Position numbers and translations under genes: made by a program. The notes under the pieces were generated by a model. That model searched no databases. It had not been told where the DNA came from and saw nothing but the letters and a program-made list of their open reading frames with translations. DNA of 56,200 nucleotides from Flavobacteriales bacterium (GTDB lineage: Bacteria > Bacteroidota > Bacteroidia > Flavobacteriales > UBA7430), in contig NZJX01000004.1 of assembly GCA_002692065.1 (NCBI GenBank), forward strand, positions 1 through 56,200. The letters run 5' to 3'. Below are positions 11,377 through 54,900 of this stretch, one piece after another. The first letter of the stretch is position 1. Each line of letters begins with the position of its first letter.

Positions 11377-14148
11377 ATGAATAAGTATATAGTATTTGTT
11401 TTTACTTTTTTAATTTGTAAAAATTTAAATGCTCAAAATATAATTTCAGGATATATTTACGATTTAGATTCTAAAGAATCTTTAATTGGGGCTAATGTTA
11501 TAGTTAATGAAAAAAAGATTGGAACTGTAACTAATTATAACGGTTTTTTTAAATTAAACCTTCCTAGTGGGATATTTAATCTTACTATTTCTTACGTTGG
11601 GTACAAAGCTGTAAATAAGAGAATTGAAGTCAGAGAATCTAAATCAATTGATTTTTTTCTGGAAACTGAAATTTTAGACGAAATTTTTTTGATTTCAGAC
11701 TTTGCCAGAAGTAGAGAAACCCCAGTTGCATTTTCTAATATTTCACCAAAACAAATTGAAGAAGAATTAGCAAATCAGGATATTCCTCTTATCCTAAATA
11801 ATACTCCAGGAGTTTACGCAACTCAAAGTGGGGGTGGAGATGGAGATGCAAGAATATCTATTAGGGGGTTCAATCAAAGAAATATTGCAGTTTTAATAGA
11901 TGGAGTCCCAGTCAATGATATGGAAAATGGTTGGGTATATTGGTCTAATTGGTTTGGACTCGATATTATGACAAAAACCATACAGGTTCAAAGAGGTCTA
12001 GGAGCATCTAAACTTGCAATTCCTGCTGTTGGTGGAACTTTAAATATTTTAACTAAAGGAGTTGATAATGTTAAAAAAACTATTTTTTCAGAGAATATTG
12101 GTAATAATGGATTATTAAGAACTACTATAGGGCACAACAGTGGGAAATTAAAAAATGGTTGGGGGTACTCAATTGCAGGATCATACAAAAGAGGTAATGG
12201 ATGGGTTGATCAAACATGGACTGAAGGATTTTTTTATTACCTAAAACTTGAAAAAAAAATAAAAAACCATAAAATTTCACTTTCTGCGTTTGGAGCACCT
12301 CAGCAACATGGTCAAAGATCTTACAGGAAAGAAATAGTTCTATATGATAAATCATATGCTTCAGGGTTAGGAATAGATACTACAAATGTCGTTGGTGATT
12401 TTGGTCTTAGATATAATGAACACTGGGGGGAATTAAACAGATACACAGTGATTTTTGATGAAAATGATAACCCAATTGATACTTTATTTAGAGAAAATGA
12501 AAAAATAAATTCTAAAAAAAATTATTATCACAAGCCTCAAATAAGTTTAAATCATTTTTGGAGTAAATCTGATAAATTGATTATTTCAAATGTAATTTAT
12601 GCATCTTTTGGCTCTGGAGGTGGAACTGGAATTACTCCAAGTGTAACTCAAGAATCAGGTGGTTTTGATCAAAATAGACAAATAAATTTTCAATCTATTT
12701 TTAATAATAATTCTGGTAATACTAGACATCCTTTTTTTGGGGACTTTTCAATAGACCCACTTTATAGTCTAACAGAACATAAATCAACTCAAATTCTAAG
12801 AAGTTCAATTAATAATCATAAATGGTTTGGATTATTAACTACTTACAATTACGAATTTAATGAAAACTATACATTATCAGGAGGAATAGATTTAAGAAAG
12901 TATACAGGAGAGCATTACAGAGAAGTTTATGATCTATTAGGAGGAGATTATTTTGTTAGTAATGAAATTGCTGCGGTAGATAGTAATAATATTTTAAGAA
13001 AAGGAGATAAATTTGCATATCACAATGATGGTTTAGTTAAATGGGGGGGGGTATTCCAACAAGTTGAGTTTGATAATACGAATTGGTCAGCTTTTGTAAG
13101 TTTCTCACTTTCATCTTCTGGATATAAAAGAATTGATTACTTTAAACCCTTAGATCTTGTTCTAGAAGACACAACTATTAATCAGATATTATCAATTGGT
13201 GACACATTTATATATAAAAATAATAGCTATACTACTGAATCAAAAGAAGCAAGATTTGCTCAAACTGACTGGAAATGGATTCCTGCTTTTACATTTAAGT
13301 ATGGATTTAATTATAACATCAATGAGTTTCATAATTTTTTTATGAATTCTGGTTTCCTAACAAAAGCTCCCAGATTCAATAATGTTTACGACTTTGATAA
13401 TAGTCTATTTGAAAATATTAAAAATGAACAAATTGCTGCTATTGAACTTGGTCATAGTTATCATAGTGATAAATTTACTACTAATTTAAACCTTTATAAT
13501 ACACAATGGAAAAACAAACCTCAATCAGGAAGTACTATTTTAGATGGAGATTTTGTCAATTACAACATAAATGGAATTGATGCACTTCATCAAGGAATTG
13601 AATTTGACTTTGTTATGAGATTTTCACAAAAATATGAACTCGAATTTTTAAGCTCAATTGGAAATTGGAAATGGACATCTGGAGATAGCATTAGAAGTTA
13701 TGATCAAAATAATAATTTATTAGCTGTAGATTATTTTGATGCAACTGGTGTTCATGTAGGTGACGCTGCTCAATTACAAGTTGGTTCTAGTTTCAAATTT
13801 AAACCAAATAAAAATTCCTACGTGAAATTGAGATTTATGAGGTTTGCAAACCACTATTCGGATTTTAATCCATTTGATTTAAAAGGAGAAAATGCTGGTC
13901 GTGATTCATGGAAAACACCTGCATATGCTCTCTTTGACCTCCATGCTGGATATTCATTAAAAATTAAGAGAACTTTAATAGATTTTAAATTTAATATCCT
14001 AAATTTACTAAACACAATTTATATAACTGATGCATTAAATAATGATGCCTATATACCTGGAAATGAATTTAACTTTGATGCAAGTTCCGCATCGGTCTTC
14101 TTTGGAATGGGTAGAAGGTTTTCAACTTCAATAAAAATTTCTTTTTGA
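11377..14148 (+). CDS. TonB-dependent receptor
   Basis: Signal peptide; N-terminal CarboxypepD_reg-like domain (ESLIGANV); plug (IRGFNQ..VLIDGVPVND..IQVQRG..GGTLNI); beta-barrel ending in Phe. Confidence 0.95.
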   Translation: MNKYIVFVFTFLICKNLNAQNIISGYIYDLDSKESLIGANVIVNEKKIGTVTNYNGFFKLNLPSGIFNLTISYVGYKAVNKRIEVRESKSIDFFLETEILDEIFLISDFARSRETPVAFSNISPKQIEEELANQDIPLILNNTPGVYATQSGGGDGDARISIRGFNQRNIAVLIDGVPVNDMENGWVYWSNWFGLDIMTKTIQVQRGLGASKLAIPAVGGTLNILTKGVDNVKKTIFSENIGNNGLLRTTIGHNSGKLKNGWGYSIAGSYKRGNGWVDQTWTEGFFYYLKLEKKIKNHKISLSAFGAPQQHGQRSYRKEIVLYDKSYASGLGIDTTNVVGDFGLRYNEHWGELNRYTVIFDENDNPIDTLFRENEKINSKKNYYHKPQISLNHFWSKSDKLIISNVIYASFGSGGGTGITPSVTQESGGFDQNRQINFQSIFNNNSGNTRHPFFGDFSIDPLYSLTEHKSTQILRSSINNHKWFGLLTTYNYEFNENYTLSGGIDLRKYTGEHYREVYDLLGGDYFVSNEIAAVDSNNILRKGDKFAYHNDGLVKWGGVFQQVEFDNTNWSAFVSFSLSSSGYKRIDYFKPLDLVLEDTTINQILSIGDTFIYKNNSYTTESKEARFAQTDWKWIPAFTFKYGFNYNINEFHNFFMNSGFLTKAPRFNNVYDFDNSLFENIKNEQIAAIELGHSYHSDKFTTNLNLYNTQWKNKPQSGSTILDGDFVNYNINGIDALHQGIEFDFVMRFSQKYELEFLSSIGNWKWTSGDSIRSYDQNNNLLAVDYFDATGVHVGDAAQLQVGSSFKFKPNKNSYVKLRFMRFANHYSDFNPFDLKGENAGRDSWKTPAYALFDLHAGYSLKIKRTLIDFKFNILNLLNTIYITDALNNDAYIPGNEFNFDASSASVFFGMGRRFSTSIKISF

Positions 14149-14149
14149 C

Positions 14150-17100
14150 ATGAAAAAACATTTATTAATATTATACTTTATTACATTAAATTCAATTTTT
14201 GTAAATTCCCAAAATTCTAATTACTATGAAAATTCCCAAAATTTAGTTGGTGAAGATCTTAAGGAATCTCTTCATAATCTAATTAAAAATCATAATGAGT
14301 TTTCTTACAGTTCTAGTAAACAAATTTTAAAATTAAGTGATGAAGATCCTGCTAATTCCTCAAATATAATACTCATTTATAAAGGGAATTCGATTAATAA
14401 AGATGATTTTGCATCTAACATGGAGCCAAACTTTTGGAATAGGGAACATGTTTGGGTTAAATCACAAGGAGGATTTAATGGTGATGAAACATACGGGAAT
14501 AAAGGTGCTTACAGCGATGCCCATAATCTAAAACCTTGTGATGCAACAATCAATTCAGATAGAGGTACCAAAGATTTTGATAATGGAGGAGTTCCAAACT
14601 CTGAAGCAGTAAATTGTAATTTTACTAGTACAACTTGGGAACCAAGAGATGAAGTGAAAGGAGATGTTGCTAGAATTATTTTTTATATGGATGTCAGATA
14701 CAACGGGGCTGAAGGAGAACCAAATTTGTCGGTGGTAGACTATATTAATAACTCATCTACTCCTTTCCATGGAAAACTTTCAACTCTTCTTGAATGGAAT
14801 GAAATTGACCCTGTTGATGCATTTGAAAGAAGAAGAAATCAAGTAATTTTTAATTGGCAACAAAATAGAAACCCATTTGTTGACTATCCTGATTTTGCAA
14901 ATTTAATTTGGGGAAACTCCTCACCCAATTCCTTGGGGTTTAATGAAGTAAATTTAGAATATTCCAATCCTAGTGAAATTCAAAGCCAAAGTATTTCAGT
15001 AGATATTTCTAATTCATTTATTACCCCAATTGATCAAGTTGAACTTAGATATGCTTCATCATGGTTCGACATTTATGATGATAATGGAATTATCGAAGAA
15101 TACAATTCTTTGATGACATTAAATAGTGAAACAGGTCTTTATGAAGGTAATATTCCTAGTTTCCCGGAAGGAACAGATGTAAAATATACTATCACAATAA
15201 GATTAGATAGCTTTAATAATACTTTCTATGGAAATTATAAAGTTGCTTTAAATCCATTTGAAGGAGAGTTAATATCTATACAAGATGTTCAGGGAAATTC
15301 AGATTACTCACCATATGAGAATGAGACAATATCTACAAAAGGAGTTGTAACAGCAGTTATTGGAGATGATTTCTATATCCAAGATGGTACTTCTCCAAGA
15401 AGTGGGATATATGTTTATACTTCTCCCGTAATTCCCTCTTTGGGTGACAGCGTAATAGTAACTGGGGAAGTTTCAGAATTCCAATGGGAAGATCCAACTG
15501 ATGAAAAAATGACTGAGTTAGCTTATCCAGATGCCGTATATATTCTTAATTCAAATAATCCAATTCCTGAACCTGTTGATATAGAAACTGGCAATCTGAA
15601 TTCGGAAGATTTTGAGGGAATGCTAGTAAAAGTTAATAATGTTACTGTAACTTATGCAACTTTTAACTTTGATGACTATGGACAATGGAAAGTTGATGAT
15701 GGTTCTGGTCAATGTAATATTCACAATACGATTGAAGGATATGAATACCCTGCTGTAGTAGGTGAATACTTATCTTCAATAACTGGGGTTAGTAACTATT
15801 TATTTGGTGAGTGGAAAATTGATTTACGAATGCCTGACGATGTTGATGGTGCTCCGGATACTTTTGCTCCATCAATAGTTAGTTGCGAAGTAATAAACGA
15901 AAGTTCAATTAACTTAATTTTTAATGAAGATTTAGATGAAACTTCTGCTGAAAACATCGAAAATTATTCAATTAATAACAATGTAATAATTAATTCTGCT
16001 AATCAAAATCTTTTTCAAAAATCCAGAGTGGTTTTAAGCGTTTCAAATTTATTAACAGGTAATTACGTTCTAACAATATCTAATGTTGAAGACTTACTTG
16101 GCAATTATATAGTAAATGAAACAATTTCTTTTGACTTCATTGAACTTAATGATCAAATATTGGGGTGTACTGATATAAATGCATTAAATTTTAATGAATT
16201 AGCTAATATTGACGATGGCTCATGCGAATATAATTCAAATCCTATTTTTGAAAAATCATTATTTTTCTCAGAATATGCTGAAGGTAGTTCTTATAATAAA
16301 TATCTTGAAATATATAATCCTACCAATGAGAAAATTAGTCTAGATAATTATGGATTCCCTAGCTGTGCAAATGATCCAACTGATCAAATTTCAATTGGGC
16401 CTCATGAATACTGGAATAATTTCCCACAAGGAGCAGAAATAGAATCTCAAGAAGTTTATATTATAGCTCATCCTCAAGCTGATGACTACATATATGATTT
16501 AGCTGACCATTTTCATCAATATTTAAGTAATGGGAATGATGGATATGCACTAGTTTATGGGACCGAAGAAAATTATGAAATTATTGATAAAATTGGTGAT
16601 TGGGTTGAAGATCCAGGAAATGGTTGGGATGTTGCTGGAGTTAGTGATGCTACTATGGATCACACTTTAATTAGAAAATGTGAAATTAGTAGTGGTAATT
16701 CAGATTGGAATTCATCAGCTGGTACTAATGCAGAAAATTCTGAGTGGATTGTCAATAATAACGAAGATTGGTCAAATCTAGGAATACATAATATTTGTTA
16801 TGATCAAATCATTTTTGGTTGTACTGATGAAAATTCAATAAATTATAATCCTAATGCAACTTTAGATGATGGAAGTTGTATTGATCCAATATTTGGATGC
16901 ATGGATTCTACTTACCAAGAATATGATCCTATGGCAAATGTAAATAATCCAGATGATTGTTTAAATCTTATAGGAATCCATAAAATAAATTTTAATGAAA
17001 GCTTTAAACTTTTTCCAAATCCTAGCGATCAATTAATTAATCTAGTTGCTAATAACAACTTTAAAAAAATTAATATTAGTATTACAAATAATATTGGGAT

Positions 17101-17242
17101 ATTAGTATCAAAAATTGAATTCGGAAATATGAAACAAAATGACAAAATTCAAATTGATATATCTGAACTCAAATCTGGCTTTTATTATATAATTTTAAAT
17201 TCACGAGAATTAAATGTGAGTAGCTACTTTGTGAAAAACTAA
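14150..17242 (+). CDS. Secreted endonuclease I / Bsn-family nuclease with OB-fold region, Ig-like domain, LTD, Cys-paired repeats and T9SS CTD
   Basis: [26 protein letters not shown] and [22 protein letters not shown] (His-Me finger); [35 protein letters not shown] and EGMLV (ExeM-like OB folds); [12 protein letters not shown]; FPNPS CTD. Confidence 0.92.
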
Positions 17243-31075: not shown

Positions 31076-34000
31076 ATGAAAAAATATATTTTAATTCTCT
31101 TTTTTTCAAATTTAATATTCTGTAATAATTTATATCCCCAGTGTGGAATTATTGACTCTGAAATTTTAATTCTTAATCAAGAAGATTTTTTATCATACTC
31201 TAATTGCGAATCTATTGATGGTAACGTCGTAATTAACGGAGAAAATATAGATTCGTTAATTTTTTCTAATTTAATATCAATTAATGGTAATTTAAATATT
31301 TTTAATACCAATATTACCTCAATTGCACCATTATCTAGTTTAATGAATGTTAATGAAATTAATATATATAATATTAATCTTTTAGATAACTGCTGTTCAT
31401 CACTTAACTGGCAATCACTAATTGAACTTGGGACTATATCAAATTTAAATATTCACTCCAACTCAACTAATTGTAGTTCAACTATAAGTATAAATATCTC
31501 ATGTTTAGGTCTCTTAGAAGGGTGTACGGATAGTAACTCTTTAAACTTCAATCCATTAGCTACAATTGATGATAATAGTTGTTTAAACGGTCCTGATCTT
31601 CAAGTATCTGCATCAGCTATTATAAATTCTCTGGAAATAAGTACTTTTAATAGTGAAGATAATTGTTTAGTAGCTGAGGGATGTATTTCAGGAATTGGAA
31701 ATAGGAAAATATTAAAATTCACAACAACAATCTCAAATTATGGGAATGAAGATTTTTATATTGGTGAAACTGGGGGAGCTGAAAATTTAAATGAAAATTT
31801 TTACTGGGATGATTGTCATGGTCACGCTCATTATGAGGGTTATGCCAATTATAAGCTATTTTATTACCCATCCTTAGAACAACATCCAACAATTGGACAT
31901 AAAAATGGTTGGTGTGTTATGGACTTAGGTAATGCCGTTACTTCTGAAGCCCCAGATAATGCTAATTATCCTCAATGTGAGTTTGAATACGGATGTTCCA
32001 TCATGGGTATAAGTGCTGGATGTTCCGACACTTATGGATCTGGGTTATCATGTCAATGGGTAGATATTACAGATTTATATGATGGTCAATATATTTTAGG
32101 AGTCTCTACTAATATGGAAACTGAGAATTATACTCCTCAATATGAAACTAATTATTCAAACAATTCAGTATATATATTATTTGAATTTGAAAATAATGAA
32201 ATTATTTCAGTTTCCCATTTTGATGACAATTCTATAACTGAAAATTGTACTATAGATATTGATAATTCTGAATTTGGATTTCATATCTCCAACGAAAATA
32301 ACTTCCTTTATGCTTTTACAAACGAATTTTTCAATGAATCTATTCAAATTAATATTAGTGATAGTATTAATATTAATAATGATGTTTTTGTAATTGACTC
32401 ATTAATAATTAATGATATAACTAATTTACCAGATAGTATTGAATGGAATTGCAGTAACGAAAATTGTACTTTTTATCCTGGTAATTCTTGTCTTGGAATT
32501 TATGGTATTACAACTTATACAGGTGAGTTTTCGCTCATATTTAATTCAACTTTATATTTATCGGATGATAATGACTTATCATCAATAATAAATATTCCAA
32601 ATATATTTCAAAATAATGAACCTGATTTAGAAGAAAATTTAATTAACAACGAAAGCAGTTTAAATGATTTAGATCCAAACTTTACTATATTGATAACTGA
32701 TCCAATATATGGTTGTATAGACTCATTTGCTCTAAATTTTGATAATAATTCAAATTTCGATGATGGTTCTTGTATTTTTCCAAATATTGGATGTACTGAC
32801 TCATTTGCTCTAAATTTTGATAGTTTTGCAAATATCGAAGATGGTTCTTGCGAATACTGTACAGAGGGGATAGAATGGATTGTTAAAATGAATTTATTTG
32901 ACTCATATGGTGACGGATGGAATGGGAATAACTACTACATCATTGATGATCAAAATGATACCATAATCGAAGGAACTCTAGATGATGGTTACGAAGGTGA
33001 AAACTTATTTTGCCTATCTCCGGGGTGTTATTCTATAAGTGTCCCAAATGAAAATCCTTGGCCATATGAAATTTCATGGGAGTTGTCAGCTCAAGGATTC
33101 TCTGAAGTAAACTTAAATGGTGATTGTCCTGATTTAGTTCCATTTAACTTTTTAAGTGATTGTGATTTCAGTATAGGTTGTACAGATTCTTCTGCATTAA
33201 ATTATGATAGTACTGCAGTATTTAATAATGAAGAATGTATATACCCTCTTTTTGGTTGCATTGATTCATCAGCATTAAATTATAATACTAATGCAAATTA
33301 TAGTGATTCTAGTTGTGTATATCCTAATCTATGTAATAATAATGAGAATTCTTTAGTTTTATTTTTATTTGATTCATATGGTGATGGTTGGAATGGAAAT
33401 AACCTCACATTATACAATTCTAGTTATGATTCAATAATTTTTGAAACAACATTAGACTCTGGATATGAGGGAATTGAGACCTTATGTTTAGATAATGAAT
33501 GTTATTTGATATCTGTGACTGGAGGAAATTGGCAAAGCGAAATTACATGGGAAATTAAAAGTACAACTGATGAATTAATTTTAAATGGCAATTCTCCATT
33601 AACCAGCTTTTTTGGTCTAAACTCAACATGTGACTCAATATTTGGATGTTCAAATCCATCTGCAATAAACTATAATCCAAGTGCAGGTTCAGATGACTTT
33701 TCTTGTATTTTTGAATCTTCAGCATGCGAGGACAATTATAATTTAATTAATTTAGAACTTCAAACAGATCCGTATCCAAATGAAACATCTTGGTCAATAA
33801 CAAATGATGAAAATGATACTCTGATTTTTATTGATTATTATGAAAATCAAAATGCTCTGTATTCTGATTCATTCTGCGTTCCACAAAATATATCTCTGAA
33901 CTTTAATCTATATGACTCATATGGTGATGGTCTCACAAGTGGTGCGGGAAATGGAGAATTTAAATTCTTTGTCTGTGGTTTACAAGTATTTTCAGGGTCA

Positions 34001-35101
34001 AGTTTTGAATATCAATTTTCAGGAAATTTTCATGACTGTGAAGGAACATCTATTAGTATCTATGGATGTACAGACAGTATAGCCTTAAATTATAATTTGA
34101 ATGCTAATTATAATAATGGTTCTTGTGAATATGGTGAAATTTTTGGCTGTACAGACGAATTTGCAATTAATTTTAATCCAATGGCTAATATAGATGATGA
34201 TCAATGTGAATATATTTATTGCGATTCAAATAATCACATAATTGAATTAAATATACAAAATACAAATTATGAGAATAATCCTAATATTGAGTATTCAATT
34301 TTATCATTAAATAATCAATCATTATCTTATGATAGTTTATCCAACATAATAAATTTCACTCATTATTATTGCTTAGAGGCTGGATGCTATATATTTTATC
34401 CGAATAATGTCTCAGAAAATCAGTCATACAGCTGGTCTATAAGCTCTGGAAATAAAAAAATAATTTCAGGAGATAATGAAAATAAGACAAGTTTTGAAAT
34501 AAGCTCCATTTGTAACTTAAATTTTGGATGTAATGATGAAAATGCCTTAAATTTTGATTACAGTTCAAATTATAACGATAGTACTTGTATTTATAATGAT
34601 TCCTTAGTAATAAATTTAACAGACGGGTGGAATATGGTTTCTTCATATATTCAATCAGAAAATATGAATATAATTAATCTCACAAATAATATTTTAAATG
34701 AAATTATAATAATAAAAAATAATATAGGTTTAGTCTTCATTCCAGAGTGGAATTTTAATTCAATTGGTAATTGGTCAAATTATGAGGGTTATCAAATAAA
34801 AGTTTCAAATAATTGTGATATAACTTTCTATGGTCAAGCTCTTGTTCCTGAGGAAAATCCTATAATGTTAAATCAAGGTTGGAATTTAATTAGTTATTTT
34901 AGGCAAAATGAGGCTTCGGTAGAAGGTATTTTCTCATTAATAAATAATAATATAATAATAGTTAAAAACTCAATAGGACTTGCTTACTTGCCAGATTGGG
35001 GTTATAATGGAATAGGAAATTTTGAACCAGGTCAAGGGTATCAAATAAAAATGATTATCAATGATGAATTAAATTATTTACCAAATAACTTAAATTATTA
35101 A
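31076..35101 (+). CDS. Large secreted protein: receptor-L-like domain, lysyl-oxidase domain, Cys-paired repeats, DSYGDG modules, C-terminal tandem GWN-YQIK module
   Basis: Signal peptide; LOX motifs [63 protein letters not shown]; 9 GCxD..C repeats; no YPNP-type CTD. Confidence 0.9.
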
Positions 35102-35832
35102 TATTTTAAATTTCCTCTATTTTTTCTGATTGTTTCGTATGCTTCTTTAACTTTGATGAATTTTTCTTCTCCCATCTTTTTTTGAATCTCATTTAAATCA
35201 TTTAACTTATCAGGATGATATTTCATAACCATCTTTCTGTAAGCTTTTTTAATTTCTGAATTACTTGCTGATGAGGAAATTTCCAATATCTTATATGCTT
35301 GATCAGGATCTTTATAAAACATAGCTTTTATTGAATTTAGATCTTTTGTACTAATATTCATATAAAATCCAATTTTTTCTATAACATTAATTTCAGATTT
35401 ATCAATATGTTGATCAGCGAGAGAGATCCCATATAAAAAGTGAATTAGTTGTAGTCTTTGAGCATGTGATATATTTTTTCCAATTTGGATACAAATTTGT
35501 CTCAATGAAATTGAATTGTTATTAATTATATGTTTAAATAGTTTAAAATATTCCTTGGATCTTGAACTCCCAAACATTGTTGAAAATTTATCTCTCACAT
35601 AAATTAATTCTCGATTATCAATTTTGCCATCAGCCTTTATTACATAAGCAGACAATATCAACAAACTAATTTCAAATTGAGCTGCAGATTTACTGACGTT
35701 TTTAAAATGATTTTTAAATTTTTCTTTTTCATCAGCTTTTTCAAATAAAGATCCTAAAGCATAACCTAACATAGCTCCCATTGGACCGGCAAAAACCCAA
35801 CCTAATCCACCAGTTATCCATTTTAATTTCAT
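35098..35832 (-). CDS. DjlA-like co-chaperone (TerB-like domain plus C-terminal J domain)
   Basis: N-terminal GGLGW..GP.GA.LG membrane segment, KADG.ID..E, AY.IL..IKKAYRK..KYHPDK. Confidence 0.9.
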
Positions 35833-35876
35833 AATTTTTTTTTAATAAATTTAGGATAATAATTTAAATTTATATA

Positions 35877-36758
35877 ATGTTTAAAAAATTAAATAATAAA
35901 ATATTTCGCGATCTATTTTGGGTAATAAAGTCAGATCAATTAATTGATATTAAAGAGGCTTTAAAAAAAAAATATCTAAATGAATGTTACGAAAATTTCT
36001 ATTCGTCGTTTAAAAATATTGATTTGTGTGGTGACAATATACTTGTTGATCTAAAAAATAAAACTTTGGGTAAATATTTTGAGATGTTAGTTTTTTTTTG
36101 GTTAAATAAATCAGATAGATTTATTTTAATTGAACATAATTTACCTGTTTTAAATACTCAAAAAAAAACAATTGGTGAAATTGATCTTATTGTTTTTGAT
36201 AAAAAATTGTCAAAATTTTATCACTGGGAAGTATGTGTAAAATATTATTTAGCTTATCAATTTAAAGATAAATTATCATATATAGGACCCAATTCAAATG
36301 ATTTTTTAAATCAAAAACTTGATAAATTAAAAAAAAAACAACTAACTATATTAAATTCTAAAGAAGGTCAAATAATACTAGACAGTTTAAATATTAAAAA
36401 TATTGAATCTAAAGTATTAATGAAAGGAATGATTTTTTATAATCATAATATGATCAAAAATTTTAATTTAGATTTAAATGAAAATCATAGTAAATCTTGG
36501 TGGATTTATGAAAATGAAATTAATGATTTTTTGAATCACAAGGATGAATTTTGTATTTTAGATAAACTTGAATGGATGTCAGATCCTTTTCCAAAATTTT
36601 TATTAAGTTATAATAAATTGACTTCTAAACTGAAAAAACTATTTTCAAAATCAGATAAAAGCATATGTCTTGCAATTTTTAAAAATAAAAAATATTTCAA
36701 TAAGGGTTTTGTTGTAAGCAAAGCTTGGCCAAAAAAAATTAATATTATTTCAAATTAA
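35877..36758 (+). CDS. DUF1853 family protein (PD-(D/E)XK-like)
   Basis: [37 protein letters not shown]. Confidence 0.8.
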
Positions 36759-38289
36759 ATTTAATACCTTGTGCAAGAGGTAAATCTTTAGAGAAATTTA
36801 TTGTATTTGTTTGTCTTCTCATATATGCTTTCCATGCATCGGAACCAGATTCTCTTCCTCCACCAGTTTCTTTTTCTCCTCCAAATGCACCTCCAATTTC
36901 TGCCCCAGAAGTCCCAATATTTACATTTGCTATTCCACAATCTGAACCAAAATGTGATAAAAATAGTTCTGACTCCCTTAAATTATTCGTCATAATCGCA
37001 GATGACAAACCTTGAGGAACAGAATTTTGCATTGATATAGCTTGTTCAATTTTTGAATATTTTAATAAATATAGTATTGGAGCAAATGTTTCTTTTTGAA
37101 CAATTTTAAAAGAATTTTCTGCTTCAGCTAAAACTGGCTGAACATAACAACCAGAGTCAAATGATTCTCCTTTTAAAATGTTACCCCCAAAAATAATATT
37201 TCCTCCTTCATTTTCAACTTGTTTTAATGCTAATTTAAAATTATTAACAGCTGATTTATCAATCAAAGGCCCGACATGATTTTTCTCATTTAACGGATTT
37301 CCAATTTTAATCTGCTTATATGCATCAATAAGTTTATTTTTCACAATTTCATATATTGACTCATGAATTATTAACCTTCTAGTTGACGTACATCTTTGAC
37401 CTGCTGTCCCAACTGCTCCAAAAACAGCACCAATAATAGTCATATCTAAATCAGCATGAGGAGTTACAATTATAGCATTATTTCCACCCAATTCTAATAT
37501 TGACTTTCCAAATCTTTGAGCAACTTTTGCCCCTACAATACTTCCCATTTTGGTTGATCCAGTAGCTGAAATTAATTTTACTCTATTATCATTTGTCAAC
37601 CATTCTCCAATATTATAATCACCACTTATTAATGTTGAAATTCCCTCTGGTAAGTTATTTTCTCTTATTACTTCACTCATTATATTTTGACAAGCAATCG
37701 AACAAAGTGGAGTTTTTTCTGAGGGCTTCCAAATACATACGTTACCACAAATCCAAGCAAGAGCTGAATTCCATGCCCAAACAGCAACTGGAAAATTAAA
37801 TGCCGAGATAATTCCAACTAATCCAAGTGGATGATATTGTTCATACATTCTATGGTTCGATCTTTCTGAATGCATGGTAAATCCGTGTAATTGTCTTGAC
37901 AATCCGACAGCAAAATCACAGATATCTATCATTTCTTGAACTTCCCCCAAGCCTTCTTGATATGACTTTCCCATTTCATAAGAGACTAGGCTTCCTAGAG
38001 ATTTTTTCTTTTCTCTTAATTTATTTCCAAATTTTCTTACAATATCACCTCTTTTTGGAGCTGGAATTGACTTCCAAATTTCGAATGCATTAATACATGT
38101 ATTAATTACCCTCTCATAATCTTCTTTAGTTGTAACTTTAACTTTAGCAATTAATTCACCATTAACAGGTGAAAAAGAATTCAAAATATTTTCACTATTA
38201 TCATACCAGTTTATACCACTAGATGTCCCAGAATTCAATTCATTTATTCTTAAATCACTTAATATATTCTTTAATCCATAATTTTTCAT
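36745..38289 (-). CDS. Aldehyde dehydrogenase family 7 (piperideine-6-carboxylate / aminoadipate-semialdehyde dehydrogenase-like)
   Basis: [58 protein letters not shown]. Confidence 0.92.
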
Positions 38290-38305
38290 AACATTTAAAA
38301 TTTAT

Positions 38306-39635
38306 TTAATTAAATAGTCTAATAATATCATTACCGTTTGCTATAACTAATAAAAACATCAAAATTAAAAATCCAAAAACTTGAGCTCTTTCCAATAATT
38401 TATCAGAGGGTTTTTTACCAGTAATAATTTCACCTAATAAAAACATTACATGACCACCATCAAGAGCAGGAATAGGTAGAATGTTCATAAAGGCTAGAAT
38501 GATTGATAAAAATGCAGTAAAATTCCAAAAATGATACCAATCCCATTCTGACTTAAATTGTTTTCCCATTGTGATAAAACCACCCAAGCCTTTCCAAGCA
38601 CCAGTATTGGGATTTAAAATTAATTTGAATTGTTTCATGTAGGAATTTAATCTATTACTAGCCATTTTTGCTCCAGCAGGAAAAGAACCAAGAAAGGTGT
38701 ATGTTTTTTTACTATATTTTAGTAACTCTGATGGCGAGGTATAATAAATCCCCATTTTTGAGTTACTATTTAATTGAAAATTAAAATTCAAAGTATCTTT
38801 TTCTCTGAGAACCATTAAACTTATCTCATCACTTCTCAAATCCTTTAATTCATTTAAATATTCGGTGAAGTAATATAAGTTTTTTCCATTTAAACCAATT
38901 AATTGGTCTCCAACCCTTACTCCTGCATCAAAAGCTGGAGAATCTTCATCAAACTTTGAAGCAATATATGGCCATGCAGGACTTATAAAACCAGACTCAT
39001 CTTTATTATTTATCAACTTTTCAATAATATTATCAGGAATAACTATAAATTTTTCTTTATCATTTCTCTCAACTTTTACTTGAATTTCCCCTGACAAGAG
39101 AATTGCTTCAGGTAAGTCTGAAAAATTATCATAATATTTTCCATCTACTGATATTATCTTATCACCATTTTTAAACCCTAAATCTTTTGCAAATTGCGAG
39201 CATTCAATTCCGTATTTCATATTCTTAACTTCAAGATATTGTTGTCCCCAATAAAATAAAATCATAGAATATATAATAATTGCAACAATAACATTAACAG
39301 TCACTCCACCTATCATAATTATTAATCTTTGCCAGGCAGGTTTAGATCTGAATTCCCAAGGTTGAATAGGTTTTTCTAATTGCTTTTTATCCATTGACTC
39401 ATCTATCATACCAGCTATTTTGACATATCCGCCTAATGGAATCCAACCAATTCCATATTCAGTTGATCCAATTTTTTTTTTTAAATATTGAAAAATAAGG
39501 GTCAAAAAATAAATAAAACTTTTCGACTTTAGTTTTAAATAGTTTAGCTGGGATAAAGTGACCAAGTTCATGTAAAACTATTAAAATAGAAAGGCTAAGA
39601 AAAAATTGAGATGTTTTAATTAAGATTTCAATCAT
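38306..39635 (-). CDS. rseP: RIP metalloprotease RseP with an apparent +1 frameshift in an A11 run (39472-39482)
   Basis: ATG 39635 overlaps the dxr stop (ATGA) and reads MIEILIKTSQFFLSLSILIVLHELGHFIPAKLFKTKVEKFYLFFDPYFSIFKKK. Removing one A joins it to IGSTEYGIGWIPLGGYVK..NILPIPALDGGH. Confidence 0.9.
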
Positions 39636-40786
39636 TTTATTTGATTTTTTGCAATTAATCTAGCATTTTTATCAGATTCTATATAATCTTCTAAGCTAGG
39701 ATGGTTAATAAATTTGGCTTTCTCTATAGTATTATTAATTATTTCAGACATTTGATGAAACTTTAATTTATCATGTAAAAATGCATTTACTACAACTTCA
39801 TTTGCCGCATTTAGAGTACATGGAACATTACCTCCACGTTTAATAGCATCAAATGCAAGTTTTAAGTGTTTAAATGTTTTTATATCTGGGCTTTCAAAAG
39901 TTAGATTATTAAATTCCTTAAAATTAAACCTTTTAAAATTATTACTCAAACGTTTTGGATATGTTAATGCGAACTGAATAGGTAATTTCATATCTGGTAA
40001 ACCTAATTGTGCAATAATAGATCCATCTCTAAATTGTACCATAGAATGAATTACTGATTGAGGGTGAATTATTACCTCAATTTGATCTGTATTTACTGAA
40101 AATAGCCATTTTGCCTCAATTACTTCTAATCCCTTGTTCATCAAGGTTGAAGAATCAATAGTAACTTTATTCCCCATAGACCAATTTGGATGATTTAGTG
40201 CTTGTTCTTTTGTAACATATTGCAATTGTGAATAATTCATACCTCTAAATGGCCCTCCTGATGCAGTTAGATATATTTTCTCAATTTCATTTCTCATTTC
40301 TCCTTGTAAACATTGAAAAATTGCAGAATGTTCTGAGTCAACAGGAATTATTTTTACATTATTTTTTTTAGCTTTTTCTGTAATTAACTTACCTGCAACA
40401 ACCAAAGTTTCTTTATTTGCAATTGCAACATTTTTCCCAGAATCAATAGCTGAAATTGTCGGTAAGAGTCCTGAATAACCAACTAGAGCAACTAAAATCA
40501 AATCTGAATTAGAATTTTGTACAACATCATTTAACATTGTACTTCCAGAATAAACTTTTATATTATAACTCTCTAATTCTGATTTGACAAAAATATATTT
40601 TGAGTCATCTACTATAACTACTTTTTTTGGAGAAAATAATATAGATTGGGTTACAAGAAGTTTTGCATTTTTATTTGCAGTTAAAAATTCTATTTCAAAA
40701 TAATCATCTAATTCTGAAATTACTGAGAGAGCTTGAGTCCCAATTGACCCAGTTGAACCTAAAATTCCAATTTTTTTTTTTTTCAT
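39632..40786 (-). CDS. dxr: 1-deoxy-D-xylulose-5-phosphate reductoisomerase
   Basis: LGSTGSIG, ANKETLV, PVDSEHSAIFQ, TASGGPFR, HPNWSMG.K, NKGLE, NAANE. Confidence 0.97.
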   Translation of the reverse strand: MKKKKIGILGSTGSIGTQALSVISELDDYFEIEFLTANKNAKLLVTQSILFSPKKVVIVDDSKYIFVKSELESYNIKVYSGSTMLNDVVQNSNSDLILVALVGYSGLLPTISAIDSGKNVAIANKETLVVAGKLITEKAKKNNVKIIPVDSEHSAIFQCLQGEMRNEIEKIYLTASGGPFRGMNYSQLQYVTKEQALNHPNWSMGNKVTIDSSTLMNKGLEVIEAKWLFSVNTDQIEVIIHPQSVIHSMVQFRDGSIIAQLGLPDMKLPIQFALTYPKRLSNNFKRFNFKEFNNLTFESPDIKTFKHLKLAFDAIKRGGNVPCTLNAANEVVVNAFLHDKLKFHQMSEIINNTIEKAKFINHPSLEDYIESDKNARLIAKNQIK

Positions 40787-40837
40787 ATTTATTTATTTGG
40801 TGTTTGAGAATAAATAATGATTTTCAAAAAAATAAAA

Positions 40838-43021
40838 TTATTTTACTATATCCATTTCTTTTACCAAATGACCTGCATTAGCATACTTATCAATAATGAA
40901 TAATACATATCTTATATCACAAGATATTGTCCTTTGAATTTCAGACTCAAAAGCAATATCTCCACTCATCGCTTCCCAGTTACCATCAAAAGCTGTTCCA
41001 ATTAGATGTCCTTCGGAATTTAAGACTGGAGATCCTGAATTTCCTCCTGTTATATCAGTATTGTGAATAAAATTAACGATTAAATTACCTGAACTATCAG
41101 CATATTCTCCGTAATCTTTTTCATTATATAAATTTATTAACTTCTCAGGTAAATCAAATTCAAAATCATTTGGTAAATATTTCTCAATGACACCATCAAG
41201 GGTAGTTTTAAAATCATAATGGACACCATCAGAAGGGATATAGTCTCCAATCTTTCCATAAGTTGTTCTCATTGAAAAGTTTGCATCTGGATAATATTTA
41301 ATTTCAGGGTTCATTTCCTTTAAACCCTTAATAAACAGTCTATTTGCTTTAGATAAATTTAAATTAGCGTCTTTAGATAACCCCCCTTGGCTAAAATACG
41401 AGGATATAACCGATGAGGAAACAATATTCGCTAAATCTCTATCTAAAGATTTTTTATTTGGAGAATTCAAAAATTTAATAAATTTATCTTGATTGGTAAA
41501 TATTGAATTTTCATACAATTTACTTGAAAATTTTTTCCAATTATTTTTGTATTTTTTATCAACTATTTCAAAAAAATCTGGATAAAATTCAGGTGAAACT
41601 TCATTGAAATACTTTTGAAATAGTTTGTAAAACTGTTCTTTATCTAGATTATAATCAAAGTTTTTAAAGTGTTCTAAAGACATTTTTTTTAAATTATCAA
41701 GTAATTTTTCTTTTTCATTTTCTTCTTGTGAATTTATCATAGAGTTAATTATTCTTGAAGCTCTGTAGACAAATAAAACTATATCTGTTCCTCTAATACC
41801 AACTTCAGATAAAAAGTTAGAACTTTTTTCCAAACTATCAATTGAATTATACGAACTTTCAAACAAGTTTAAAACTTGACCATATTCTTCTATATTTTCT
41901 TTACTTAAATTTGAAAACTTATCAAAGTCATCCTCAATTTCTTTCTTTTTATCATAAATACCTAATTTTTTTAAACCCTTAGATTGACCAATATAATATT
42001 TCCAGTAGTTTGCTGTTCTTGCATATTTAGATGAATATTTTATCCTAATCTCCTCATCACTATCCATATACTTTTTCATGATTCCCAATTTAAGATCTCT
42101 TATGTCAACAATAGTAGGCGCGGTAATGTTTAATAACTGATTTACTCCATATGAAGTCAAAAATCTATCAGTTGAACCCGGGTACCCCCATACCATAGTG
42201 AAATCTCCATTTTCAACTCCTTTTATTGAAACTGGTAAATGGTGATAAAAAGCATTATTTTTTTGACGTAATTCTTTTGTTAAAGGAACATTATCTTCTG
42301 AATATTTTGAAGGTTGTCCATCTTTAGAGGCATAAACTCTGAACATTGAAAAGTCACCAGTGTGTCTAGGCCACATCCAATTATCTGTATCTCCTCCATA
42401 CTTTCCAATAGATGAAGGGGGAGCACCAACAAGTCTAACATCAGAAAACCTTTCATATATAAACATATAATATTCATTACCTGCAAAAAAAGATTTTACT
42501 TGAACTATAAAATTATTATCATTTGAATTTTCATTTTTTAGAACTTTTATTTCTTTATCAATTACATTTAACCTTTCCTCTTCACTCATATCAGAATTTA
42601 CATTTTTTAAAACTCTTTGTGTCACATCCTCCATTTTTATCAAAAAATCTACATATAGAGACGGATTAGGTAATTCGTCTTTTTTATCCATAGCCCAAAA
42701 ACCATCAGTCAAATAATCGTTTTCGATAGAGGAATGGTCTTGTATAGCATCGTAACCGCAATGATGATTAGTTAAAAGTAAGCCTTGAGAAGAGATTAAT
42801 TCTCCTGTACAAAATCCACCAAAGCTGACAATTGCATCCTTCAAACTTGAATTATTTATACTATATAATTCTTCAGGAGTTAATTGAAGTCCCGCCTCTT
42901 GCATATCAACTTCATTAAGTCTTTTAATAAACATTGGTAGCCACATACCCTCATCTGCGAGAATGTTATTTGGCATTATAAAAACAAATGATAAAGCAAA
43001 GTATAAATAGAAATTTTTCAT
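40838..43021 (-). CDS. S46 family dipeptidyl peptidase, DPP7-type
   Basis: Signal peptide then DEGMW, TNHHCG, DNWMWPRHTGDF, ITGGNSGSPV; FDGNWE has Gly at the S1 position (DPP7-like; DPP11 has Arg). Confidence 0.93.
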   Translation of the reverse strand: MKNFYLYFALSFVFIMPNNILADEGMWLPMFIKRLNEVDMQEAGLQLTPEELYSINNSSLKDAIVSFGGFCTGELISSQGLLLTNHHCGYDAIQDHSSIENDYLTDGFWAMDKKDELPNPSLYVDFLIKMEDVTQRVLKNVNSDMSEEERLNVIDKEIKVLKNENSNDNNFIVQVKSFFAGNEYYMFIYERFSDVRLVGAPPSSIGKYGGDTDNWMWPRHTGDFSMFRVYASKDGQPSKYSEDNVPLTKELRQKNNAFYHHLPVSIKGVENGDFTMVWGYPGSTDRFLTSYGVNQLLNITAPTIVDIRDLKLGIMKKYMDSDEEIRIKYSSKYARTANYWKYYIGQSKGLKKLGIYDKKKEIEDDFDKFSNLSKENIEEYGQVLNLFESSYNSIDSLEKSSNFLSEVGIRGTDIVLFVYRASRIINSMINSQEENEKEKLLDNLKKMSLEHFKNFDYNLDKEQFYKLFQKYFNEVSPEFYPDFFEIVDKKYKNNWKKFSSKLYENSIFTNQDKFIKFLNSPNKKSLDRDLANIVSSSVISSYFSQGGLSKDANLNLSKANRLFIKGLKEMNPEIKYYPDANFSMRTTYGKIGDYIPSDGVHYDFKTTLDGVIEKYLPNDFEFDLPEKLINLYNEKDYGEYADSSGNLIVNFIHNTDITGGNSGSPVLNSEGHLIGTAFDGNWEAMSGDIAFESEIQRTISCDIRYVLFIIDKYANAGHLVKEMDIVK

Positions 43022-43096
43022 AACTAGTAAATTTTAATAAATGCAAAGAAAAGAAATAAATTTGACTTTATTTTCATAAGATTCATCAAAAAAAAT

Positions 43097-43513
43097 CTAA
43101 TCAAAGTTATATGGATCATTATCAATTTTAAATTCATTTTTTTTAAAAATTTCAATTTCCCTTCTATCTTTTTTAGTAGGCCTCCCCATTCCTGGATTCC
43201 TATTTTCAAAATTTGAATTTAAATATTTAATTGTCTTCAATTTTTTAATTTCAGATAAGGGAGTTAAATCCTTGTAACATAGTCTTGCAATTGAGTATGA
43301 AGACCGAATTTCTAATAATTTTAGCACTTTGAAGCTATATGTTATATTTGATTTTTTGATTTGTATTTCGTCACCTATATTGACAAAACTTGATGGCTTA
43401 CATTTTCTACGACTAATATTTACCTTACCTAGCCTACAAAAGTTTGATGCAATATTTCTTGACTTAAAGATTCTAACACTCCACAACCATTTATCAATCC
43501 TAATCTTATTCAT
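43097..43513 (-). CDS. S4-domain RNA-binding protein (Hsp15/HslR-like)
   Basis: RIDKWLWSVR.FKSR..A, KPS, GRPTKKDRR. Confidence 0.9.
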   Translation of the reverse strand: MNKIRIDKWLWSVRIFKSRNIASNFCRLGKVNISRRKCKPSSFVNIGDEIQIKKSNITYSFKVLKLLEIRSSYSIARLCYKDLTPLSEIKKLKTIKYLNSNFENRNPGMGRPTKKDRREIEIFKKNEFKIDNDPYNFD

Positions 43514-51967: not shown

Positions 51968-54900
51968 TCAAAATGATATTGAAAAGCTAGTATTAACCTT
52001 AATTTGATATCCAGATCCAGGAGTAAAATTGCCAATCGAATTATAATTAAACTCAGGCCAATATTGGTCTCCGTTATTATCTTTCATAATATCAATATAA
52101 TTATCATTTTCTCCAAGAACTTGACTGATATCAATAATTTCATTTGAACAATATCCAAACATATTCCAACCCTCTTGAAATACGATATTAATTGTATCGC
52201 ATTGAAAATTTTGATTTGATAAATTTATTTGAGAATTTAAAGAATCTAATTGATTTAGAAGTATATTCTGTAAATCTATAACATTTGAATATGCCTCACC
52301 CCAGCTATTTGAACATGAATTATCATCAATATTTGCATTTGAATTGAAGTTTATAAAATTATCATCTGTACAACCCAAAATATTTGAAGTTTCATCATTT
52401 TCTATGTCGGTATTACCAAAAACTAATGAAAAAGGTGAATTAACCTTAATTTGATATCCAGATCCAGGAGTAAAATCTCCTATTGAATTATAATTAAATT
52501 CTGGCCAATACTGATCTCCATTATTATCCTTTAATATTTCTATATAATCATCAAAATCTTTCATTACTTCACCAATATCATTTGGGGTTGAAGCTGTGTA
52601 GCCAAACATATTCCATCCTACTTGAAACTGAACAGTAATCGCACATTGATTAGCAATTACTGAATCAATATGATATTCAATTGACGAAATTTCATCATAT
52701 AAATTAAAATTCATACTTTCTACTGTAGTATATCCTAATTCCCAAGATGTATTGCAAGTACCATCATCAACATTTGCATTTGTATTGAATTCCATATAAT
52801 TAGCATCCATACAACCCAAAATTATACCAATACATGAGCCATTATCAAAATTAGCATTGGGGTCAAAATTTAAAGCATTGGGATCAATACATCCATTGAC
52901 AATATAAATGCAAGAGCCATCATCTACATTGGCTTCTGAATTATAATTATTTGCTAAAAAATCCATGCATCCTAAGTTTATATTAATACAAGAACCATCA
53001 TCAGCATTTGCATGTGAATTAAAATTCAATGAATTAAAGTCCGTACATCCATAAACCATATCAATACATGATCCATTATCAAAATTAGCATTATCATCAT
53101 AATTAAATGCATTTAAATCTGTACAACCAAAAATCAGTTCAATACATGAATTATCGTCAATATTAGCATCTGGATTATAATTTAATGATCCAGAAGTTGT
53201 ACACCCAAGAATGATTTCTTGACAAGAACCATCATCCTCAGTTGCATTCATATTATAATTTAAGGAATTTGGATTCATACATCCCGATATAGGATATCTG
53301 CACGATCCGTCATCTAAATTTGCATTTGGATCAAAGTTTAATGCATTTGAAAATATACATCCTAATATGACTTCTTCACATGATCCATCATTTGTATTTG
53401 CTGAAGGGTTGTAGTTAATTGCATTTAAATTAATACACCCTAAAATTATATCCTCACATGAATAGTCATCAGTATTAGCTGAAGGATTGAAATTAAATGC
53501 TAAAGGATCTGTACAGCCTAATGAGATTGCTTGACAAGAACCATTATCAGTATTAGCAAAAGCATCATAATTAAAAGAGTTAAGATTAATACATCCCAAT
53601 ACTACATCAATACAACTTCCATCATTAAAATTTGATATTGAATTATAATTAAATGCATTAATATCAGTGCAACCTGGTATTACTTCTATACAACTTCCAT
53701 CATCTTCATTTGCTAAATTAAAATAATTTAATGCTAGAGGATCTGTACAACCAAAAATAGAGGGATAAATACAAGAATTATTGTCAACATTTGCCCCAGG
53801 ATCATAATTGCTTGCTATTTCGTCCATACAGCCTAAAATTATACATGTTCCATCTTCAATATTTGCATTTGGATTGTAATTTTCAGCAATAGAATTCATA
53901 CATCCTGAAATTTCTATTAAACAAGAACCATTATCTTGAGTAGCTAAAAAATTATAATTAGATGCTGATATGTTAGTACATCCAAGAATAATTAAAATGC
54001 AAGAGTTATCGTCAACATTTGCAAATGAATCATAATTTTCAGCACTAGGATTTGTACATCCTAGAATTATACAAGAACCGTCATCTTCATTTGCTTCAGG
54101 ATTATAATTAGACGCTATTGGATCTATACATCCTAATACAATATATGTACAAGATGAATCATTTGTGTTTGCTTCAAAATTATAATTAGATGCCAGAAAG
54201 TCTGTACATCCAAATATAATATCAATACAAGATCCATTATCTGTATTTGCTTCAGAATTGTAATTAAATGATAGCGGATTTATACATCCATAAATTATTG
54301 GAATACAAGTACCATCATCTGTATTTGCTTCAGAATTGTAATTAAATGATAGCGGATTTATACATCCTAAAGTTATATCTTCACATGATCCATCATCTGT
54401 ATTTGCCTCAGAATTATAATTATATGATAGCGGATTTATACATCCTAAAGTTATATCTTCACATGATCCATCATCTGTATTTGCTTCAGAATTAAAATTA
54501 TATGATAAACCATTTGTACAACCCAAAATAATATCCTCACAAGATCCATCATCTGTATTTGCCTCAGAATTATAATTATATGATGAACTATTAATACATC
54601 CCATCACAACCGATATACATGACCCATTATCAGTTGTGGCTTGGGAGTTGTAATTGAATGATAATCTATCCGTACATCCCTCAATAATGCATGAATTATC
54701 ATCTTGTGTTGCGTCTAGATCATAATTCAAAGCAATAGGATTCATACACCCAGAATATGTACACGATGAATTATCCACTAAATAAATACCTTGATTTATA
54801 ACATTCTGCAATGAACTGCTAAAGTTAGTTGAATTTGGATCGGCATATGAAATATAATTATTTGCTTGATCATCTATGCAAATTAAATTACTAGAGATTC

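Follow-up and report, generated by a model that had tools for sequence, protein, structure and literature searches.

A predicted copper amine oxidase of the lysyl oxidase family within a Cys-rich repeat protein of a Flavobacteriales bacterium

Within a 56,200-nucleotide stretch of DNA from a Flavobacteriales bacterium (GTDB UBA7430; assembly GCA_002692065.1, contig NZJX01000004.1, positions 1-56,200; this whole stretch is referred to as the window herein), we analyzed a gene at 31076-35101 that encodes a 1341-residue, Cys-rich repeat protein with a lysyl oxidase (LOX) domain near its N-terminus. Amino acids (aa) ~169-385 are, beyond reasonable doubt, a lysyl oxidase catalytic domain and, judged by alignment to human LOXL2, every known catalytic residue is kept in it. 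Our best explanation, to which we assign a probability of roughly 0.6, is that the gene product is an exported amine oxidase that carries copper and a lysine tyrosylquinone (LTQ) cofactor and whose extracellular substrates would be lysine or further primary amines.

The LOX domain and its active site

An earlier note on this DNA, made from the letters alone, had read three motifs as those of a LOX domain. All three lie in the open reading frame (ORF) at 31076-35101 and in one forward frame, at aa 244-253 (nucleotides (nt) 31805-31834), aa 274-283 (nt 31895-31924), and aa 311-333 (nt 32006-32074). The Pfam family PF01186 (Lysyl_oxidase) matched aa 192-376 (nt 31649-32203) with 79.5 bits and an E-value of 3.4e-22 (cut-off 20.4 bits, model positions 27-199 of 204), and the same domain scored 83.2 bits against this model in a six-frame search of the genome. 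NCBIfam held no model matching the protein. When all PDB chains were searched with phmmer, the sole match at E ≤ 1 was human LOXL2 (5ZE3, E 4.7e-14). We then compared folds using an AlphaFold2 (AF2) model built on aa 162-388 aligned with 55 relatives (a 56-row alignment, A1), which reached a mean pLDDT of 88.6 and a pTM of 0.87. Foldseek returned 5ZE3 at E 2.1e-13 with a probability of 1.00 and a TMq of 0.68, the next entry following at E 0.013. Likewise, VIA-align placed 203 of the 227 residues on chain 5ZE3_A with Z 20.9, a root-mean-square deviation of 3.3 Å, and 28% identity; the next chain had Z 7.8. A Pfam search and a structural match were among the tests that the earlier note had named beforehand, and both returned a lysyl oxidase. 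The span it gave, 31590-32170, does fall on the domain and is slightly short, as conservation among the relatives covers aa ~169-385, or nt ~31580-32230. The domain and the sites assigned within it are as follows.

31580-32230 (+), lysyl oxidase catalytic domain, aa ~169-385 (Pfam, phmmer, AF2, Foldseek, VIA-align)
31817-31831 (+), predicted copper-binding His triad H248-x-H250-x-H252 (phmmer alignment to the HxHxH of LOXL2)
31901-31903 (+), K276, predicted LTQ lysine, in an HK..FC.ED stretch (aligned to LOXL2 Lys653)
32033-32035 (+), Y320, predicted LTQ tyrosine and fourth metal ligand in the precursor, in GC.D.Y (aligned to LOXL2 Tyr689)
32144-32164 (+), E357-T-N359-Y-S-N362-N363, probable structural Ca2+ site in the C-terminal half (aligned to LOXL2)

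These assignments rely on the numbering of LOXL2, for which the structure report (PMC5899467) gives His626, His628, His630, Lys653, and Tyr689, with the three His residues and Tyr689 binding the metal. The Ca2+ ligands named there are D549, L550, E722, D724, N727, and N728. In our alignment E357, N359, N362, and N363 stand opposite E722, D724, N727, and N728, four of the six named ligands. D549 and L550 are outside the printed alignment, and an invariant P173-D174-L175 is their likely equivalent, although it was not matched residue by residue.

To follow these residues across the family, the LOX domain was cut from 121 proteins and aligned; once an identical protein (P0002) and a fragment (P0111) had been dropped, 119 remained. 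H248, H250, H252, K276, and Y320 were invariant in 119 of 119, as were eight Cys residues, the Pro-Asp-Leu at 173-175, E357, N362, and N363, and the invariance of the catalytic residues also holds in alignment A1. The central claim of the earlier note, a LOX domain with its catalytic residues in place, thus stands on the Pfam match, the alignment to 5ZE3, and this invariance. Purifying selection on a large family is counted in support of an active enzyme. In the 5ZE3 crystal, the precursor Lys and Tyr of LTQ are 16.6 Å apart and LTQ nonetheless forms after copper loading (PMC5899467), so a distance between the two residues in a model of the window domain would not be decisive.

The Cys residues follow the animal enzymes in part. 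C197, C247, C280, C316, and C326 align with C579, C625, C657, C685, and C695 of LOXL2. No Cys is aligned with C573, C663, C732, or C746, and C673 is one position off C301. The five-disulfide pattern of animal LOX is absent here; it characterizes the animal proteins and not the whole Pfam family. The bacterial family instead has an invariant set of eight Cys of its own.

Relatives and architecture of the gene

A word-indexed protein search yielded 128 relatives. The closest 31 (P0003-P0033) are 1525-1734 aa long and 68-78% identical in the LOX domain, and the remainder are 38-50% identical with the exception of the fragment P0111 (64% over 46% of the query). Several relatives are named 'lysyl oxidase family protein' by NCBI and come from metagenome-assembled genomes (MAGs) of Flavobacteriales or Bacteroidota. 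A HMMER search of 1.84 billion cluster representatives found 2528 matches at E ≤ 1e-3, 1139 at ≤ 1e-10, and 182 at ≤ 1e-30. Among contigs representing one genome per species, at least 568 stretches encode a relative; the 78 loci retained belong nearly all to Flavobacteriales, Saprospiraceae, Chitinophagales, or unclassified Bacteroidota MAGs, and the nearest named relatives of the host genome are Flavobacteriales MAGs. Relatives also occur in marine and seawater metagenomes of several studies. Of the 16 other genomes of the same family, 8 had full-type LOX matches, and so did both genomes of one further family in the order. PF01186 was found at E ≤ 1e-10 in 5 of 300 other genomes sampled evenly from the phylum, and the LOX family is therefore patchy, with the reservation that a sampled count does not prove it absent elsewhere.

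With animal LOX the domain shares little identity, 28% with LOXL2 when aligned by structure and 31% with LOX of a spider (P0384), compared with 40-78% with more than 100 Bacteroidota proteins. 'Animal-like', the earlier note's description, is thus an overstatement, and by sequence comparison the domain belongs to a large bacterial (Bacteroidota) LOX branch. The searches for relatives returned the spider protein as the one animal sequence and no actinobacterial, deltaproteobacterial, or archaeal LOX. Nor is the domain a rarity. LOX has been in print for Bacteroidetes since 2015 (PMC4448552) and the relatives are annotated automatically, so the gene does not represent a new kind of system. Searches of one collection of papers found no study of Bacteroidota LOX, and broader searches of it gave none among the matches listed.

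A second, divergent LOX-like gene, which we regard as another lead, is found elsewhere in the host genome (G000:C7:159051-161105 (-), 684 aa). It matches PF01186 with only 24 bits over model positions 128-188. In a BLAST alignment to the window domain, its HxHxH, Lys, and Tyr align and the flanking Cys are replaced. Weak-type matches of this sort also occur in G001, G005, G017, G024, G025, G034, and G040.

The gene itself is real and intact. The identical 1341-aa protein P0002 represents a cluster whose 10 member sequences are spread over 7 contigs, and contigs from two other DNA studies span the stop codon and the next gene (X3 record 23, 924 nt, 0 differences; X6 record 31, 1346 nt, 16 differences). 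Since it recurs on the seven contigs and its stop codon is bridged by contigs from the other studies, the short form is no artifact of assembly. Contigs from two metatranscriptome libraries (X15 record 1 and X16 record 10) cover parts of the gene, the LOX domain included; the parts that they leave uncovered say nothing about expression. The many contig 'joints' at 32777-33400 were considered as gene variants and rejected, as they sit in the repeat linkers and stem from other repeat proteins.

The protein contains 55 Cys and 15% Asn. Apart from the LOX domain and its sites, the gene has the following parts.

31076-35101 (+), whole gene including the stop codon, LOX-family repeat protein of 1341 aa with an ATG start (ORF list and translation)
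31076-31141 (+), N-terminal leader, aa 1-22, MKK followed by a hydrophobic run of ~13 residues, probable Sec signal peptide (read from the translation)
31202-31495 (+), Receptor-L-domain-like N-terminal domain of the leucine-rich repeat (LRR) type, aa ~43-140 (Pfam PF01030)
31520-31582 (+), first copy of a two-Cys linker, ~21 aa, GC.D..A.N[YF]......D..C, immediately N-terminal of the LOX domain (regular expression on the translation)
32231-32710 (+), post-LOX region, aa 386-545, no family match (colinear with P0004, kept in orthologs)
32711-34600 (+), stalk, aa 546-1175, four modules of ~105-120 aa (self-comparison, motif positions)
34601-35098 (+), C-terminal double-repeat module of ~166 aa, last element of the ORF (first unit aa 1181-1252, second unit aa 1265-1335, which closes 6 aa ahead of the stop)

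From N- to C-terminus, the order is thus leader, L-domain-like domain, linker, LOX domain, a region of ~160 aa, a stalk of ~630 aa, and the double-repeat module. The ortholog P0004 has a comparable leader. The PF01030 match (E 1.4e-5, 25.6 bits, cut-off 21.8) came from a separate scan of aa 24-148, and the same domain is present in orthologs P0007 and P0019. When the post-LOX region was scanned alone with Pfam, nothing was found below E 0.6. Within the stalk, module 1 is 50% identical to module 2 (E 7e-27), module 4 resembles module 1 at E 1e-7, and module 3 is weaker; three of the four carry a D.YGDG[WL] motif. Two-Cys linkers stand singly or in pairs between the modules, with eight beyond the first copy and nine in the protein by regular expression. 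No Pfam family matched the stalk modules, whole or as isolated pieces, and their Atlas scores (≤0.80) were at chance level. The LOX domain thus lies toward the N-terminal end of a long Cys-rich repeat protein, remote from the C-terminus, an arrangement in keeping with the enzyme held on a stalk that the earlier note had pictured.

The linker is a common element in this organism. The motif GC.D..A.N[YF] occurs 203 times in 46 ORFs of the 1.65-Mb host genome, and one ORF of 7059 aa (C13:5512-26688 (-)) has 42 copies together with the C-terminal sorting domain (CTD) of the type IX secretion system (T9SS). A large share of this streamlined genome is devoted to giant Cys-rich surface proteins.

The terminal double-repeat module

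The module that ends the LOX protein is undescribed, and we regard it as a more original lead than the LOX domain itself. In the host genome, 37 units are distributed over 24 ORFs. The last unit lies within 13 aa of the stop codon in 17 of these, three have ~220 aa and a CTD after it, and two run off contig ends. AF2 modeled the module with very high confidence (pLDDT 96.0, pTM 0.88). No PDB entry matched this fold, the best Foldseek result having E 0.026 and the best of 48,161 chains in VIA-align Z 4.1. Pfam and NCBIfam gave no match to the module, and the ESM Atlas gave unnamed clusters only. The possibility that the module is a diverged type-A CTD was unsupported, as hhalign of the 37 units against 35 distinct CTDs of the same genome gave a probability of 0.5%.

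Three carriers lie in the window, with module instances at the following positions.

34601-35098 (+), in the LOX gene
39-545 (-), in the protein at 3-5387 (-)
51995-52738 (-), in the protein at 51968-56155 (-)

The protein at 3-5387 (-), of at least 1795 aa, runs off the window and has an N-terminal trypsin domain (PF00089, E 3.2e-51), 10 two-Cys linkers, eight D.YGDG motifs, and the same terminal module; its stalk is of the LOX type. The protein at 51968-56155 (-) has 1395 aa and 15 two-Cys linkers, with no Pfam family at E ≤ 0.01. It carries two separated units of the terminal module, and its stop codon follows 1 aa after the last unit.

All 16 other genomes of the same family contain the module, with 14-46 matches each. 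Outside this family, it turned up in three genomes from two families, and a search of 21 genomes from the order's remaining 15 families gave none. Elsewhere it accompanies C25, M43, and M14 peptidases, trypsin, GH16, GH18, GH2, endonuclease I, and Kazal domains, and the T9SS sorting domain PF18962 (Por_Secre_tail) is found in only 21 of 105 listed module proteins. A C-terminal position on many secreted enzymes is what would be expected of a sorting or anchoring domain, and we consider the module a candidate for a new domain of this kind. A bolder proposal, which we hold to be doubtful, is that the module is a lineage-specific export or surface-anchoring signal able to replace the type-A sorting domain of the T9SS in a family of streamlined marine Flavobacteriales. 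It would then carry a set of surface enzymes (proteases, nucleases, and glycosidases) that includes LOX as an extracellular amine oxidase, releasing ammonia from lysine residues or amines of marine organic matter.

Proposed function, alternatives, and comparison with known LOX proteins

For the extracellular amine oxidase that we favor, we propose the following course. The leader would first take the protein through the Sec pathway. In the periplasm its 55 Cys would form disulfides and, by homology to LOXL2, Cu(II) would bind at H248, H250, H252, and Y320 and Ca2+ at E357, N359, N362, and N363. Y320 would then be oxidized and cross-link to K276, giving LTQ. Display at the surface or release would follow, which is the weakest step of the scheme, the orthologs using the T9SS and the window copy ending on the double-repeat module. 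As many other exoenzymes of the family likewise finish with this module, the window protein is probably still exported or anchored by means of it. Outside the cell, the enzyme would oxidatively deaminate protein lysines, dissolved or particulate, or other primary amines to aldehyde, NH3, and H2O2, as suggested by the chemistry of the LOX family and the relaxed specificity of characterized prokaryotic LOX.

The same active enzyme might instead have a structural job, forming allysine cross-links in the cell's own surface or matrix proteins or attaching the cell covalently to proteinaceous particles; it would then serve as an adhesin or as a hardener of the matrix, in the manner of animal LOX. 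Cross-linking is the classical role of LOX (PMC5899467, PMC4448552), the domain is mounted on a long stalk next to an LRR-like binding domain, and potential substrates are plentiful among the giant Cys-rich surface proteins of the host genome, such as the 7059-aa ORF with its 42 linker motifs. We nevertheless consider a structural role unlikely. The analysis identified no substrate resembling collagen or elastin, cross-linking of bacterial collagen-like proteins was judged unlikely by Grau-Bove et al. (PMC4448552), and the characterized prokaryotic LOX is promiscuous and not matrix-specific (PMC6452851). Because the proteins that share the stalk and the terminal tag are degradative enzymes and HTU-LOX, the characterized enzyme, is promiscuous, a role in a surface exoenzyme kit for the processing of organic nitrogen is favored over matrix cross-linking.

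A different alternative concerns the 3′ end of the gene. The window copy may be a damaged allele in which a rearrangement removed the last ~220 aa together with the sorting domain, leaving a protein stranded in the periplasm or degraded and a gene heading for loss. The window protein follows P0004 (1564 aa) colinearly as far as P0004 residue 1347 and then stops; P0004 and P0007 carry PF18962 in their last ~75 aa. No match to PF18962 or to an NCBIfam sorting domain was found in the window protein at E ≤ 1, and no remnant of a sorting domain or tail was found downstream of its stop codon. A DnaJ and TerB gene at 35098-35832 (-) converges on the LOX gene and overlaps the stop codon by 4 bases, followed by a DUF1853 gene, an aldehyde dehydrogenase gene, and an M50 protease gene. 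The upstream gene, a class II aminoacyl-tRNA synthetase, adjoins LOX in G003, G005, and G009 as well, whereas the block at 35098-43500 does not adjoin LOX in these genomes. The synthetase being kept and the downstream genes differing, a rearrangement at the 3′ end is likely. Moreover, the sole other genome of the same genus (79% complete) has no full LOX match. We still regard a damaged allele as rather improbable. The frame of 1341 codons is intact with all catalytic residues present, and the short form recurs on the seven contigs and in the two further DNA studies, with pieces in the two RNA libraries. The stop codon also coincides with the boundary of the terminal module, which is normal architecture here, as 17 of the 24 module ORFs end likewise. 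The aldehyde dehydrogenase gene was considered as a functional partner, since LOX makes aldehydes, and was rejected because it is not beside the orthologs in G003, G005, and G009.

That the LOX fold is retained as a non-catalytic binding module is very improbable, as nothing specific favors it apart from the half of the LOXL2 disulfide positions that differ, and a His triad, Lys, and Tyr that never vary across the 119 relatives would be hard to explain without catalysis.

The host genome does encode a T9SS, with 41 Por_Secre_tail matches, SprA_N at E 4.9e-167, and GldM_4th at E 3.9e-19, and PF18962 is present in the majority of the LOX relatives. The assembly is rated 6.8% contaminated, and several Por_Secre_tail matches are paired, with the same scores and ORF lengths, on contigs C7/C1, C10/C19, C2/C7, C8/C12, and C4/C10. 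Copy counts in this genome may thus be slightly inflated, as the assembly probably contains duplicated stretches or two close strains. Two T9SS cargo genes are found in the window itself, at 10310-11368 (+) and 14150-17242 (+), flanking a TonB-dependent receptor gene at 11377-14148. One of the cargo proteins has a Lamin-tail domain and the other Endonuclease I and a Lamin tail, and both have Por_Secre_tail.

Several points weigh against an exported, active amine oxidase. PF18962 is found at the end of 30 of the 31 closest relatives (P0003-P0033), and orthologs in four genomes of the same family carry a T9SS sorting domain; the window copy lacks it, and the protein could stay in the periplasm. 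The earlier note's word 'secreted' is consistent with the hydrophobic leader and the T9SS of the genome and goes too far with respect to this missing domain. The terminal module has no detectable similarity to the type-A CTDs of the host, and a part for it in export or anchoring is conjecture, based on where it sits and which domains it accompanies. At the level of the enzyme, only 5 of the 10 Cys in the catalytic domain of LOXL2 have a Cys opposite them, and any claim on function that goes past family membership is an inference. The contigs from RNA libraries are only a hint of expression and do not prove transcription. Lastly, comparison of the loci in G003, G005, and G009 showed no conserved neighbor gene that would hint at a substrate.

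Should the extracellular amine oxidase prove active, aquatic Bacteroidota would possess, in this LOX family, a widespread copper amine oxidase that works outside the cell. The family could then matter for the way in which bacteria that degrade particles and polymers deal with amines and with lysine bound in protein, and for the production of peroxide at cell surfaces. Bacterial LOX domains that fold confidently are also possible models for a drug-target family of which an active-state structure is still missing, according to the LOXL2 report (PMC5899467).

Compared with LOX proteins already described, the window protein is a familiar domain in a different setting. Grau-Bove et al. (2015, PMC4448552) listed Bacteroidetes among five bacterial clades with LOX, having checked the His and LTQ residues, and stated that nearly all prokaryotic LOX then known were single-domain; the present Bacteroidota family is large and multi-domain. 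HTU-LOX from the archaeon Haloterrigena turkmenica is an active amine oxidase after refolding with Cu2+, sensitive to β-aminopropionitrile and of relaxed specificity (PMC6452851). It is the only characterized prokaryotic LOX that we found and the best precedent that non-animal LOX domains work. Like the window protein it is a prokaryotic member of the LOX family; unlike it, it is archaeal and of simple architecture. LOXL2 and the window LOX share the fold, the HxHxH motif, the LTQ Lys and Tyr, four Ca2+-site positions, and five Cys positions. However, LOXL2 combines scavenger receptor cysteine-rich (SRCR) domains with a C-terminal LOX domain, whereas the window LOX has no SRCR domains, stands near the N-terminus, and has ~950 aa of bacterial repeat modules behind it. 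The low sequence identity makes it a distant relative that is not specifically animal-like. Closest in design are the T9SS-tailed LOX proteins of Bacteroidota (such as P0004, P0007, P0043, and P0086), which have the L-domain, the stalk modules, and the double-repeat module in common with the window protein. These relatives run ~220 aa further and end in PF18962, whereas the window protein ends after the double-repeat module.

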